This document shows, piece by piece, positions 2,702 to 8,264 of a stretch of 64,000 nucleotides of DNA. This DNA is from Polaribacter sp. GTDB lineage: Bacteria; Bacteroidota; Bacteroidia; Flavobacteriales; Flavobacteriaceae. Position numbers and translations under genes: made by a program. Every line of letters begins with the position of its first letter. Position 1 is the first letter of the stretch. The notes under the pieces were generated by a model, which worked only from the letters and a program-made list of their open reading frames with translations, was not told where the DNA came from and did not search any database. The stretch is taken from assembly GCA_042091715.1 (NCBI GenBank), contig JBELGW010000009.1:5270-69269 (forward strand). Direction: 5' to 3'.

Positions 2702-3154
2702 TCATAAGTAATTAGAGATCATTGAACAGGTAAATTCTAATAAAGCTTCATCCTGTTTCGTAAAAATATTTGCGGTATGAGAGTCGATATCTATTTGTCC
2801 GATATTTTCTCCTTTGACAAAGATAGGAATGACAATTTCAGATTTTACTTTCCAACCACAAGAAATATAATTATCCTGCTCTGACACATCTTGTACCACA
2901 AAATTTTCATTACTCACAGCTACTTGTCCACAAATGCCTTTTCCAAAAGGAATGATAGTGTGGTCTGTTGGTTCTCCCGTGTATTGAGCAAGTTTTAATT
3001 CTTCCTTATCTCCATTCTTGAAATAAAACCCCACCCAATCATAATACGAAACTTGAGCCTCCAAATAGTCGCAAATAGCTTGTAGCTTGTCGCCAATAGC
3101 GTCCGTTCCTTCTAAGATGGTTGCAATAGTTGCTTTTAAATTTTCTAGTTGCAT
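2702..3154 (-). CDS. GAF-domain protein, free methionine-R-sulfoxide reductase (fRMsr/MsrC-like)
   Basis: YDWVGFY, IPFGKGICGQVA, YISC...SEIVIP and IGQIDIDS. Start moved to MQLENLK (3154) because the ORF-track upstream extension looks non-coding. Confidence 0.85.
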   Translation of the reverse strand: MQLENLKATIATILEGTDAIGDKLQAICDYLEAQVSYYDWVGFYFKNGDKEELKLAQYTGEPTDHTIIPFGKGICGQVAVSNENFVVQDVSEQDNYISCGWKVKSEIVIPIFVKGENIGQIDIDSHTANIFTKQDEALLEFTCSMISNYL

Positions 3155-3420
3155 AATGAGATGTGTTAATTGTATTAGAACATGGTTCGTTATAGAATAA
3201 TGCACAAATAACTGAATTTTGTGGCAAATATCTGACAAAAGAGTCGTCTTTTTTTGTCTTCTTGTTGTGTCCAAATCATTACAAAGAAACATCTGTTTTA
3301 TAAGATTATGATCTGTGTTTTTTTTGAGGTCTATTGTTTGTATTCCTTATAAACTGCACGTTACAAGATTGAAACATGAAATAAACACCTCGTTATGATC
3401 GGTTTTTACAAGAATGTTTG

Positions 3421-3428
3421 TATTTTTG
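3421..3428 (+). promoter_or_regulatory. -7 element (TATTTTTG) for the HYC_CC_PP/TBDR/HMA unit
   Basis: TAnnTTTG 10 nt before ATG 3439, implying a very short 5' UTR. Confidence 0.5.
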
Positions 3429-3438
3429 TGCTGATTTT

Positions 3439-3843
3439 ATGACACGCTTTCTACACAAAATAGCATCCTTATTCATGGCAGTAATTGTACTGCTTTCAAC
3501 CATGTCTTTTACAATTGAAAAACACTACTGTGGAGATTATTTGGTGGATATTTCTATACTTGGAAATTTGGAGAAATGTGATATGAAGTCAGAGCAAGCA
3601 GCGGTATTGAAAAAGAAAGACTGTTGTTCAGACGAAATACTTCATGTTGAGGGTCAAGATGAATTGCAAAAAGAAAATTTCAATACACTCCCTATTTATC
3701 AGAAGCTTTTTCTAACCGATGTGTTTTTTAAGAAACTTGCTTTTCTTGATTCAAAAGAAGGGTTGTCTGCAAGAAATTCAGGACCACCCGACCTCCATCA
3801 ATGCAAAAATTTACAGATCTTTTACCAAACCTTTTTAATCTGA
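3439..3843 (+). CDS. HYC_CC_PP family protein (N-terminal hydrophobic helix, Cys motifs, C-terminal GPP)
   Basis: Hydrophobic N-terminus, then EKHYCG, KKDCCSDE and SGPP, ending QTFLI; directly upstream of a TonB receptor. Confidence 0.85.
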   Translation: MTRFLHKIASLFMAVIVLLSTMSFTIEKHYCGDYLVDISILGNLEKCDMKSEQAAVLKKKDCCSDEILHVEGQDELQKENFNTLPIYQKLFLTDVFFKKLAFLDSKEGLSARNSGPPDLHQCKNLQIFYQTFLI

Positions 3844-3916
3844 TTTTACAAAAATTACAGCAAGAAGCCTCTCATAACCAGAAGAGATACGTGTATAATT
3901 TTTATAAAATAAAGTA

Positions 3917-6157
3917 ATGAAGAAAATAGTTGTCAGTCTATGTTTACTGATTCCCATATTATCATTCGCTCAACAAAAATTGAAAGGGATGATTATCGAT
4001 AAAGAACGTTCAAAAGATACGCTAGGAGTTTATGCAGCCAATGTATATTGGCTTGGGACCTCTGTAGGAACAATAACCAATGAAAAGGGGTGGTTTGTAA
4101 TACCCTATAAGAAGTCATATAAACAATTAGTTGTGAGTTATGTGGGTTATAAGACGGATACATTGACCATCACCAACCTTGATCCGATTCGTCATGTTTT
4201 AACTCCGGAGGGGCAGCTCGATGAAGTGGTTCTTTCCAATACGAAAAAGGGCATCCAAAAATCGTTTTTAAAAACTCAAAATACATTTACGGTAAACAAA
4301 GAGGAGCTTTTAAAGGCTGCATGTTGTAATCTATCGGAGAGTTTCGAAACAAACCCGTCTATTGATGTGAGTTTCTCGGATGCGCTAACAGGAACAAAGC
4401 AAATTCAGATGTTAGGGTTAACAAGTCCGTATTTGCTGTTCAATCAAGAGAACATTCCTTCTATAAGAGGAGCGTCACAGGCATTTGGATTAACGTTTAC
4501 TCCAGGTACTTGGATAGAGAGTATTCAAATCACTAAAGGAGCGGGAAGTGTAGTAAATGGTTTTGAGAGTATTTCTGGGCAAATTAATGCAGAGTTGGTG
4601 AAGCCATTTTCAGACAATACGCTTTTTGTGAACACCTATGCTTCGTTAAATGGACGCTTAGAATTAAATACGCATGTCAATCAAAAGTTGTCGGAAAAAT
4701 GGCAAACAGGTTTCTATGTTCATGCCGATTATCGAGGAGAGAAGTTTGATAGAAATGAGGATGGCTTTTTAGATGTGCCTTTGTCTCGACAAATCAACAT
4801 GATGAATCGATGGCAGTATACAGATGCTGCAAAAGGATGGATTAGCTTTGTGAATGTGAGATACCTTCAGGATACCAAGCAAATGGGTCAAATTAATTTT
4901 GATCATGATACAGATGAAGGAAGTTCTGAGGTTTGGGGTAGTGAAATAGCAACCAAACGATTTGAAAGTTCTGCGAAATTAGGCTATGTTTTCCCGCAGA
5001 TGCCTTTTCAAAGTTTTGGGTTGCAAGTTGCCTATAGCAATCACGAACAAGATTCCTATTTTGGTTTGAATTTATACGATATAAATCACAAGAGCTTTTA
5101 TGGAAACCTATTGTTTAACTCCATTATTGGAGATACCAGAAACAAATTTAAAACTGGGATTGGTTTTTCACAAGACACCTATTCAGAGCAGGTGAATCAA
5201 TTGCGCTATGATCGAACAGAAGCCGCAGCTGGAGCGTTTTTTGAGTATGCATACGACAATTTAAATAATTTTAGTTTCACCGCAGGCCTGCGAATAGATC
5301 GGCATACCTATCTAGGGACTTTTGTTACACCTAGGCTGCACCTTCGCTATGTGCCATGGGCAGATGCTGTGCTGCGTGCATCGGTAGGGAAAGGAAGAAG
5401 AAATGCTGCTATTTTTGCCGAAAATCAAAAGTACTTTGCCAGTTCAAGACAGGTGAACATATCAAGTAGTGGTGACAACGTGTATGGTCTGTCTCCAGAA
5501 ATTGCTTGGAATTTTGGGCTGTCGTATTTGCAGAAGTTTCGACTTTTTGATAGAAAAGGAGATGTTACTGTAGATTTTTACAGAACCGATTTTTCGAATC
5601 AAGTAGTTGTCGATGTGGAAAACCCACAGGAACTCTCCTTTTACAATTTAGCAGGAGCAAGTAAGGCAGATAGTTTTCAGATCGAGATGAATTATGAATT
5701 GGCCGATCGATTGGGTGTGCGAACGGCCTATAAGTATTACAATGTTTTTACAGATTATAGCGCTGGAAGGTTTCAAAAGCCACTACAAGCCAAACACCGA
5801 TTTTTTGGCAATATTTCTTATGAAACAGCGCAAAGATTGGAAGATTCACAGTGGAAATTTGATGTTACTTATCACTTTATTGGTGAGCAACGTTTGCCAG
5901 CGACTTTGTCAAATCCTGCAGGCTATCAGTTGCCGATACATTCCAAACCTTACAGCTTGTTAAATGCACAAATAACGAAAGTATTCTCGGAGAAGTTTGA
6001 ACTGTATGTAGGTACAGAAAACCTAACAAATTACAAACAACAAAATCCTATTGTAGGGAGTGATGCTCCTTTTGGCCCATATTTTGATACCACTATTGTG
6101 TATGCGCCAATTTTCGGAAGAATGCTCTATATGGGATTTCGATTTAAATTAGATTAA
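3917..6157 (+). CDS. TonB-dependent outer membrane receptor with Cys-Cys motif in the plug
   Basis: Signal peptide, CarboxypepD_reg-like N-domain (VSYVGYKTDTL), plug region (ELLKAACCNLSESFE; IESIQITKGAGSVVNG), barrel ending GRMLYMGFRFKLD. Confidence 0.93.
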   Translation: MKKIVVSLCLLIPILSFAQQKLKGMIIDKERSKDTLGVYAANVYWLGTSVGTITNEKGWFVIPYKKSYKQLVVSYVGYKTDTLTITNLDPIRHVLTPEGQLDEVVLSNTKKGIQKSFLKTQNTFTVNKEELLKAACCNLSESFETNPSIDVSFSDALTGTKQIQMLGLTSPYLLFNQENIPSIRGASQAFGLTFTPGTWIESIQITKGAGSVVNGFESISGQINAELVKPFSDNTLFVNTYASLNGRLELNTHVNQKLSEKWQTGFYVHADYRGEKFDRNEDGFLDVPLSRQINMMNRWQYTDAAKGWISFVNVRYLQDTKQMGQINFDHDTDEGSSEVWGSEIATKRFESSAKLGYVFPQMPFQSFGLQVAYSNHEQDSYFGLNLYDINHKSFYGNLLFNSIIGDTRNKFKTGIGFSQDTYSEQVNQLRYDRTEAAAGAFFEYAYDNLNNFSFTAGLRIDRHTYLGTFVTPRLHLRYVPWADAVLRASVGKGRRNAAIFAENQKYFASSRQVNISSSGDNVYGLSPEIAWNFGLSYLQKFRLFDRKGDVTVDFYRTDFSNQVVVDVENPQELSFYNLAGASKADSFQIEMNYELADRLGVRTAYKYYNVFTDYSAGRFQKPLQAKHRFFGNISYETAQRLEDSQWKFDVTYHFIGEQRLPATLSNPAGYQLPIHSKPYSLLNAQITKVFSEKFELYVGTENLTNYKQQNPIVGSDAPFGPYFDTTIVYAPIFGRMLYMGFRFKLD

Positions 6158-6158
6158 G

Positions 6159-6530
6159 ATGAAAAAAATAGTATTAATTGTGATGGCATTCTTGCTATCT
6201 GTTTCTGTGCAAGCACAGAAAAAAAATAAAAATGCCAAAGTAACTATTGAGGTAGATGGAGTGTGTATGATGTGTAAAAAGCGGATTGAAACGGCGGCGC
6301 TAAAAACCAAAGGTGTAAAATTTGCCTTGTGGGATTTGAAAACACATCAGTTGCAATTGATTATTGATGAGCGTAAAATAGATGTGACATCAATTCAGAA
6401 AAATATAGCTTTAGTAGGTCATGATACCAAGCCTATAAAAGCTACTGATGCCGCCTATGACACCGTGCATCCATGTTGTAGGTATAGAGACGATGATCCA
6501 ATGAAAGATTACCGAGGGCAGGATGATTAA
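6159..6530 (+). CDS. Exported heavy-metal-associated (HMA) domain protein
   Basis: Signal peptide (SVQA/Q), VDGVCMMCKKRIE CxxC motif, C-terminal HPCCRYRD; 1 nt after the receptor stop. Confidence 0.9.
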   Translation: MKKIVLIVMAFLLSVSVQAQKKNKNAKVTIEVDGVCMMCKKRIETAALKTKGVKFALWDLKTHQLQLIIDERKIDVTSIQKNIALVGHDTKPIKATDAAYDTVHPCCRYRDDDPMKDYRGQDD

Positions 6531-6561: not shown

Positions 6562-6596
6562 AAAAAAAAACCTCGAGAATTTCTCGAGGTTTTTTT
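6562..6596. terminator. Bidirectional intrinsic terminator between the HMA gene and groEL
   Basis: A9-CCTCGAGA-ATT-TCTCGAGG-T7 between convergent genes. Confidence 0.9.

Positions 6597-6617: not shown

Positions 6618-8264
<1,647 letters not shown>

Follow-up and report, generated by a model that had tools for sequence, protein, structure and literature searches.

The described systems closest to the locus analysed here are the outer-membrane receptor OprC/NosA, the leader proteins CruR and CutF, the relay MerP-MerT-MerA and the TonB-dependent transporters (TBDTs) ZnuD and BtuB. The locus itself is a three-gene unit of Polaribacter sp. that encodes, in order, a small protein of the HYC_CC_PP family (HYC), a TonB-dependent receptor with two adjacent cysteines in its plug, and an exported protein with an HMA domain. 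It lies in a 64,000-nt stretch of DNA, hereafter the window (contig JBELGW010000009.1 of assembly GCA_042091715.1, positions 5,270 to 69,269, forward strand). Little is understood of the way in which bacteria bring soft metals such as copper across their outer membrane, and we know of nothing described for the Bacteroidota, which dominate marine polysaccharide degradation and the gut. The module occurs in hundreds of species and in about a quarter of the Bacteroidota genomes sampled (the receptor in 85 of 301, HYC_CC_PP in 82). Our best reading, to which we give about an even chance, is that it is a TonB-dependent transporter for a thiophilic metal, most likely copper, in which the plug passes the metal to the HMA protein by a thiol hand-off and a leader peptide acts as the switch. 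If this is true, it would be a new transport mechanism for TBDTs. It would also carry nascent-peptide metal sensing, recently discovered with CruR and CutF, over to a family not homologous to theirs, in a phylum whose translation initiation is unusual.

OprC/NosA of Pseudomonas (TIGR01778) is an outer-membrane TonB-dependent receptor that handles a soft metal with sulfur ligands. Its copper site is CxxxM-HxM (PMC11213822), and a homologue of cruR, encoding a small leader with cysteine, lies upstream of oprC (PMC9426467). The DUF2946 leaders CruR and CutF are small and exported; each combines a Cu-binding Cys motif with a C-terminal Pro-rich stalling motif at a fixed spacing, and its gene is followed by a spacer that is long or structured. 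In cis, they control a TBDT operon or a copper oxidase (PMC9426467; PMC9973294; bioRxiv 10.1101/2025.02.05.636593). In the count of Öztürk et al., Bacteroidota account for 19% of the CutF-like proteins, whose genes lie there upstream of CusA-, OEP- and TonB-type genes, and the Cys-type members are mostly upstream of Cu genes (PMC9973294). Opposite outputs are possible within this one leader family, as CruR and CutF illustrate (PMC9973294). In MerP-MerT-MerA, an exported HMA protein with a CxxC motif takes part in a hand-over between cysteine pairs, including vicinal Cys-Cys. ZnuD, the zinc TBDT of Neisseria, and BtuB are fold neighbours with the same 22-strand barrel and plug. In BtuB the 50 residues past the Ton box make up a subdomain of low mechanical stability, which TonB unfolds and pulls into the periplasm (PMC5413942).

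Compared with these systems, the Polaribacter module appears OprC/NosA-like in purpose, CruR/CutF-like in control without homology, and Mer-like in chemistry without MerA. The original prediction had drawn the analogy with OprC. It holds at the level of function and of a small Cys leader upstream, but the CxxxM-HxM site and the TIGR01778 signature are both absent. A genome-wide TIGR01778 search found no OprC-type receptor in the Polaribacter genome and did not list the receptor gene, so that membership of OprC/NosA is rejected. The module receptor has only the adjacent Cys pair in its plug, whereas OprC has no HMA partner or fusion, and the OprC structure is no closer to the receptor than BtuB or FepA. 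The Mer pathway runs through an inner-membrane MerT step, whereas the module has an outer-membrane TBDT and belongs to the core genome. ZnuD and BtuB are only 11-14% identical to the receptor; ZnuD has His/Asp-rich loops, and neither has plug cysteines or an HMA partner. The force-labile plug subdomain of BtuB nevertheless serves as a model for movement of the segment with the Cys pair (PMC5413942).

The receptor (3917..6157, plus strand; 746 aa) is a TBDT by its Plug and barrel profiles, its 22-strand barrel and its flexible TonB box. It scores 27.0 bits against PF07715 (cut-off 23.9) and 81.3 bits against PF00593 (cut-off 27), and PF13715 (CarbopepD_reg_2) is also matched. A signal peptide, cleaved at about SFA before QQ, is followed by a CarboxypepD_reg-like domain (residues 23-105), the TonB box LDEVVLS (residues 101-107; nt 4217-4237), the plug (121-221) and the barrel. 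In the AlphaFold2 (AF2) model, built from a 51-sequence alignment with a predicted local distance difference test score (pLDDT) of 88.9, residues 101-107 are the sole disordered stretch. Foldseek with this model returned BtuB, Cir and FepA as top matches (11-14% identity, E = 1e-30), with OprC and ZnuD no closer. Against PDB sequences phmmer gave no match for the receptor. A profile search reached XusA from Bacteroides thetaiotaomicron alone, for its N-terminal domain and plug, and aligned the Cys pair with the variable loop that directly precedes its conserved plug helix. No mapping of the published Riemerella ZntR onto the Cys-Cys receptor was achieved.

The plug motif ELLKAACCNLSESFETN (KAACCNLSE) is present in the receptor open reading frame (ORF) where the original prediction had read it, with Cys136 and Cys137 encoded by TGT TGT at nt 4322-4327 (plus strand), about 30 residues past the TonB box. 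The AF2 model places the pair where the plug begins, in a loop that joins two short helices, and no other cysteine occurs in the mature receptor. Such a pair had been called unusual for TonB-dependent receptors, and the genome bears this out: only one of its 39 receptor-like ORFs of at least 450 aa has a Cys-Cys dipeptide, and 27 lack any cysteine in the mature part. Cysteines are thus avoided in the receptors of this genome. Poor conservation had been named beforehand as a point that could count against a role for the pair. Instead, conservation is family-wide. The pair is invariant in 51 aligned homologues and present in 91 of 92 receptors from the fetched loci, and 81 of those 92 have exactly these two cysteines. 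A protein search against 1.8 billion sequences gave 949 receptor clusters at E <= 1e-30, and among the top 150 (clustered at 50% identity) all 149 full-length representatives have it. A one-genome-per-species scan found E[LF]xKAACC[ND] encoded in at least 597 species. The pair is not a chance feature, and the Cys pairs of the module as a whole are, judging from the alignments, invariant at a functional grade. By its position we would assign the plug pair to the moving plug segment. A different cysteine motif, NCNVCNTGD (CxxC), occurs in the plug of a paralogous CarboxypepD_reg-type receptor of the same genome (G000:C1:119520-121781; 24% identity), where it replaces the conserved Gly-rich strand of other receptors.

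Only 1 nt separates the receptor stop from the ORF of the HMA-domain protein (6159..6530, plus strand; 123 aa). A Sec signal peptide, MKKIVLIVMAFLLSVSVQA, cleaved before Q, is followed by the CMMC motif (residues 36-39; nt 6264-6275) and by a second site in the C-terminal tail, HPCC-RYR (Cys-Cys at nt 6474-6479), all in line with the original prediction. The PF00403 score of 30.1 bits (cut-off 24.8) places it among HMA proteins, and the CopZ and MerP equivalog models stay below their cut-offs (29 vs 91 bits and 19.6 vs 92.55 bits). CxxC is found in 83 of 83 HMA partners and the C-terminal motif (H)PCC(K/R/L)YR in 81. A second member of the HMA-CC family in the Polaribacter genome (G000:C24:18882-19370) is a lipoprotein with the lipobox LMGC, CGMC and a C-terminal PGCCKYDRD, and stands alone among unrelated genes.

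Receptor and HMA genes travel together. Among the 80 best loci of the scan, which are Flavobacteriaceae by title apart from one labelled Gammaproteobacteria (L147) and a few labelled Bacteroidota or Flavobacteriales only, the two are adjacent in 79, and the order HYC-receptor-HMA is kept in about 68. The gap between receptor and HMA genes is 1-40 nt. In other classes both orders of this pair occur, and there the trio is arranged HYC-HMA-receptor with unrelated flanking genes. The HYC_CC_PP, receptor and HMA genes form one conserved three-gene operon.

The two proteins are also found fused. In the ORFs at L151, L153, L155 and L156, a signal peptide is followed by the HMA domain (CxxC...Cys-Cys), a linker, the CarboxypepD_reg domain, the TonB box, the plug (KAACC) and the barrel, and the fusion at L152 has two HMA-CC domains. 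Such fusions make up 20 of the 150 cluster representatives (about 13%). N-terminal extensions of TBDTs are periplasmic. Because the HMA-CC domain is fused at the receptor N-terminus, it would act on the periplasmic side beside the TonB box. The natural fusions indicate that the HMA protein partners the receptor directly in the periplasm, and they give the strongest support for a hand-off between plug and HMA domain. We found no paper on the receptor-HMA pair, nor relevant work on TonB or HMA proteins in Flavobacteria; the family-wide fusion count is new here.

The first gene (3439..3843, plus strand; 134 aa) encodes a candidate metal-sensing leader. It matches the NCBIfam model NF047658 (HYC_CC_PP) with 99.2 bits against a cut-off of 28, and its HYC, CC and PP motifs are residues 29-31, 62-63 and 116-117, respectively. 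No Pfam family matches at E <= 0.01, and our literature search found no paper on HYC_CC_PP. The protein consists of an N-terminal hydrophobic export or anchor helix (residues 2-21), His29-x-Cys31, Cys47, Cys62-Cys63 (KDCCSDE; nt 3622-3627), Pro116-Pro117 (nt 3784-3789) and a hydrophobic C-terminus ending in FLI. Together with KAACCNLSE and HPCC, this gives an adjacent Cys pair in each of the three genes, as had been claimed. Residues H29, C31, C47, C62, C63, P117 and I134 are invariant in 32 sequences. Across 107 HYC proteins of low overall identity, the last Cys-Cys and the Pro-Pro are 52-61 residues apart (54-56 in 86), the tail past Pro-Pro has 15-16 residues in 90, and 89 end in isoleucine, with FLI, FII or YLI in 83. 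The AF2 model is poor (pLDDT 66), with residues 42-61 in the Cys-bearing middle disordered and a small beta-hairpin with His29/Cys31.

The HYC gene is always the first of its unit, at a median distance of 75-93 nt from the next gene. In 40 loci fetched from across the phylum, it precedes a Cys-Cys receptor, a CusA/CzcA-family pump of the resistance-nodulation-division (RND) type, or other HMA or P-type ATPase loci. The RND pumps (TIGR00914, with the motif AIAIGxMVD in transmembrane helix 4) are accompanied by an outer-membrane factor and by DUF3347 and HMBD proteins. CruR/CutF-type leaders likewise head TBDT and Cu-efflux or Cu-oxidase operons, and CruR-BfrG(CrtA)-Bp2921 of Bordetella pertussis and CutF-CutO-CutG of Rhodobacter capsulatus share with the HYC operons a small exported first gene with a Cys motif, a Pro-rich C-terminal element and a structured or long spacer. 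The differences lie in the motifs (HxC, C and CC in HYC vs CxxC or CxxxC), in the position of the prolines (15-16 residues before the stop vs 3) and in the regulated receptor, which is not of the CrtA family. By the definition of CutF-like proteins in PMC9973294, HYC agrees in size and location (134 aa, hydrophobic helix 2-21, a 73-nt same-strand spacer) but not in the position of the Pro motif, after which 17 residues follow in the window protein. The family mode of 15-16 is at the edge of the published filter.

HYC might be read as a third station of the thiol relay in the original prediction. We think that HYC_CC_PP is most likely a CruR/CutF-like exported metal-sensing leader instead, because it is always the first gene, has an export signal, keeps a fixed spacing of Cys-Cys, Pro-Pro and C-terminus, is predicted to fold poorly and is followed by a structured RNA spacer before both receptor and CusA-like genes, with CruR and CutF as precedents. 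We also count in favour of this model the near-absence of DUF2946 from the phylum (PF11162; 7 marginal matches in 301 Bacteroidota genomes). The Bacteroidota share in the count of Öztürk et al. suggests that the HYC-type leader class has been seen bioinformatically but is unstudied (PMC9973294). An unlikely alternative is a thiol relay of three stable stations, from the plug Cys pair to the periplasmic HMA protein and on to a membrane-anchored HYC_CC_PP metallochaperone. This would account for the invariant Cys pairs in all three proteins and for a HYC with a transmembrane or signal helix and a hairpin bearing His29/Cys31, and the fixed HYC spacing could simply reflect a folded domain. It sits poorly with the presence of HYC ahead of CusA-like efflux operons and other metal loci, and with a long structured spacer after HYC where receptor and HMA genes nearly abut. 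The poor predicted structure also speaks against it, as do a hydrophobic C-terminus and a Pro-Pro motif that resemble those of short-lived leader proteins (PMC9426467, PMC9973294).

Two further groups of proteins occur near such loci. In Bacteroidia that lack COX1 (L157-L162), the Cys-Cys receptor has a small Cys-rich protein encoded upstream of it, which contains either YCCxxC plus another three or four Cys-Cys pairs or a His-rich stretch. It matches neither NF047658 nor Pfam, and the HMA partner there has no C-terminal Cys-Cys or is absent; this protein is probably a divergent branch of the leader class. A recurrent neighbour of HYC and metal loci (L037, L048, L052) is an AraC-type regulator of about 186 aa whose N-terminus is an HMA-like NMVCxRC domain; such regulators are candidate metal-sensing transcription factors of Bacteroidota, and none with this N-terminal domain was found in the Polaribacter genome.

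The 73-nt spacer between the HYC and receptor genes (3844..3916, plus strand) is predicted to fold into a structured intergenic clamp. Its outer helix pairs 3844-3857 with 3896-3909 and encloses a small hairpin (3869-3886). This helix begins at the first nt past the HYC stop, and its second arm lies 8-21 nt upstream of the receptor ATG. Over 41 HYC-to-receptor spacers, the median z-score of the minimum free energy (MFE) is about -3, with 30 below -2, and 80 co-directional control spacers of the Polaribacter genome have a median z of -0.9 (Mann-Whitney p = 1e-5). The 14 HYC-to-CusA-like spacers show the same architecture, with a median z of -3.9 (p = 1e-4 vs controls). The 5' arm begins no more than 3 nt past the HYC stop in 30 of the 41 spacers, and the partner arm ends no more than 25 nt from the receptor start in 27. 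In this respect the HYC-to-receptor spacers have the structured RNA expected downstream of CutF-like leaders. An Rfam search of the clamp gave nothing above the gathering score, and RNAalifold on seven spacers recovered the inner hairpin alone, because MAFFT cannot align the divergent outer arms. The fixed HYC geometry, the stop-to-start clamp common to receptor and efflux operons, and the place of HYC_CC_PP at the head of CusA-like efflux operons are new here.

From the anatomy, conservation, fusions, gene context and RNA structure statistics reported above, we infer the metal, its direction, the thiol transfer and the leader mechanism. In our preferred reading, the plug dithiol would sit in the N-terminal half of the plug, the half that by homology with BtuB is pulled or unfolded by TonB. 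The HMA protein, with its CxxC and C-terminal Cys-Cys, would stand at the periplasmic face by the TonB box and exchange metal with the plug thiols. The cargo would most likely be Cu(I), with Zn or Cd-type metals as possibilities. Metal bound to the Cys/His motifs of HYC during translation and export would alter the passage of the ribosome through the Pro-Pro/C-terminal segment. The clamp would otherwise hold the translation start region of the receptor in a helix. Since a ribosome at a stop codon covers about the first dozen downstream nt, a ribosome at the HYC stop would unzip the clamp and free the receptor start. Bacteroidota generally lack Shine-Dalgarno initiation, and the clamp would instead mask an A/U-rich start region. 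We propose, tentatively and as a rather speculative extension, a 'thiolate elevator' in which TonB drags the metal-loaded plug dithiol to the periplasmic HMA-CC protein, together with a portable HYC/clamp cassette that serves co-translational metal sensing before receptor and efflux operons alike. We know of no transport mode of this kind described for TBDTs.

The family context supports a soft, copper-type metal. Copper is favoured by the CusA-like, HMBD and GMTCxxC genes in this context and by the location of Cys-type CutF-like leaders mostly upstream of Cu genes (PMC9973294). The GMTCxxC motif belongs to an optional fourth component, a cytoplasmic GMTCxxC HMA domain joined to a MauE-type four-helix membrane domain with a QCAC motif. 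It occurs in 26 of the 80 loci, between HYC and receptor or after the HMA gene. This protein, which may complete the path to the cytoplasm, was not found in the Polaribacter genome.

Import is favoured because all structural features of the receptor are of the importer type and the genome has no metal-efflux hardware. The original prediction had noted that no P-type ATPase or RND efflux gene is present. This holds for the whole assembly, which has a genome of 2.8 Mb at about 90% completeness, so that about 10% of the genome is missing: PF00122 has zero matches where 14 of 14 control genomes are positive, and there is no CusA-like pump, the sole RND match being generic (21-25% identity) and on another contig. 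MerA, MerT and MerR were not found in the Polaribacter genome either. With no P-type ATPase, CusA-like pump or MerA, a resistance role would have no partner hardware in this assembly. The lack of efflux hardware in the Polaribacter genome is new here. Without P-type ATPases the bacterium would lack CopA, CcoI and Kdp as well, an unusual situation given the one heme-copper oxidase of this genome.

A dedicated copper supply to heme-copper oxidases was considered and is weakened. COX1 is present in 272 of the 301 genomes, yet six of the seven Bacteroidia without COX1 keep the Cys-Cys receptor. The occurrence of the module in oxidase-less lineages is new here. Thus, copper import is most likely by analogy and context, and the alternatives to be taken seriously are a cargo of the Zn/Cd type and protection induced by the metal.

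As regards the relay first proposed, the conserved unit, the invariant Cys pairs, the periplasmic HMA partner and the soft-metal context stand, as does the TBDT architecture behind outer-membrane uptake. The role of HYC as a station is less likely than that of a leader, and the import direction is only probable; the HYC cassette also heads CusA-like efflux operons. An improbable alternative is metal-induced protection, in which the HMA-CC protein would capture a Cu(I)-type metal in the periplasm for disposal or sequestration at or through an outer-membrane protein, or in which a protective ligand would be imported. The identical leader and clamp cassette before CusA-like efflux pumps speaks for it, as does the module in anaerobic-type Bacteroidia without heme-copper oxidases. 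For Oar, which is TBDT-like and has a CarboxypepD_reg domain, a role in export has been reported (PMC6434023). Against it, a TonB box and plug of this architecture belong to importers, and the module lies in the core genome among housekeeping genes (mreB, purH, groEL) and is kept in a 2.8-Mb genome without other metal-resistance hardware. In addition, CruR and CutF show opposite outputs from one leader family (PMC9973294).

Several observations weigh against our preferred reading. The leader cassette ahead of efflux pumps fits metal induction better than a starvation response, and receptor and pumps that share it could respond to metal in the same sense. Retention of the receptor in the COX1-less Bacteroidia means that the module has no fixed link to a respiratory need for copper. 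In the window itself the clamp reaches only modest significance (z = -1.8), and the longer stretch 3780-3930 does not fold significantly (z = 0.04). HYC has no detectable homology to DUF2946, and its Pro-Pro, at the distance from the C-terminus given above, compares with 3 residues in CruR. The matches of the HMA partner to CopZ, MerP and ZiaA are all weak; a search against the PDB gave weak CopA and ZiaA matches together with spurious repeat-protein matches. No inner-membrane importer is encoded in the window, and we found no experimental work in the literature for any member of the module. Finally, in the oxidising envelope the plug Cys pair could be a vicinal disulfide.

A highly improbable alternative is thiol-disulfide chemistry, in which the receptor would be redox-gated or would take up thiol or disulfide compounds via mixed disulfides, with a MauE-like redox partner. 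Vicinal cysteines are able to form redox-active disulfides, MauE/DoxX proteins are redox-associated and the envelope is oxidising. The partner, though, is a canonical HMA fold with CxxC, the context is consistently one of heavy metals (CusA-like RND, HMBD and P-type ATPase loci), and MauE is absent from the Polaribacter genome. A Mer-like uptake relay for mercury or organomercury is barely conceivable and is rejected: its vicinal Cys pairs, as in MerT, MerC and the MerA C-terminus, and its exported HMA protein do resemble the chemistry of MerP, MerT and MerA (PMC3466566), and the MerP and MerTP models match weakly, but MerP scores only 19.6 bits (cut-off 92.6), the best TIGR02053 match is 306.6 bits vs a cut-off of 454.45 with no MerA, the module is core and phylum-wide where mer is sporadic, and Hg import without a reductase would be harmful.

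The ends of the operon can be placed in the window. The HYC start is most likely ATG 3439 rather than TTG 3418. A -7 promoter element of the Bacteroidota type, TATTTTTG (TAnnTTTG; 3421..3428, plus strand), was read 10 nt 5' of this codon, and across 38 orthologous upstream regions a box resembling TTTTGTAnnTTTG is kept, 12-18 nt ahead of the start codon. We infer that 3421..3428 is the promoter of the HYC gene. Because this element is only 10 nt from the start codon, the HYC mRNA would have a very short 5' untranslated region. A TTTAAC-N5-GTTAAA-like or GTTAAT element lies at a variable distance of 25-45 nt upstream of the -7 box (L071-L147 and window 3380-3428), with a degenerate copy in the window, ATAAACACCTCGTTATG. 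It is a possible transcription-factor site that is indistinguishable from the AT-rich background. At the other end, a bidirectional intrinsic terminator (6564..6596), a 15-bp stem between A and T runs, closes the operon and is shared with groEL, which converges on it from the minus strand (6618-8252). One shared terminator had been predicted at 6562; the terminator is there, at a slightly different position.

The locus at L147 (CAWGBV010000019.1), a contig of a metagenome-assembled genome titled 'uncultured Gammaproteobacteria', carries a HYC-receptor module of the flavobacterial type with 61% identity to the window receptor, and this contig is probably mis-binned. In Flavobacteriaceae the module has conserved housekeeping surroundings, namely mreB, purH, a GAF protein and groES/EL. 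The GAF-domain protein (about 150 aa; PF13185, PF01590) is encoded divergently upstream of the operon (2702-3160, minus strand), and its gene is kept near the module in 60 of about 120 loci, alongside purH, mreB and groES/EL. We take the window protein to resemble single-GAF proteins of the free methionine-(R)-sulfoxide reductase type, and its gene probably just marks the housekeeping neighbourhood.

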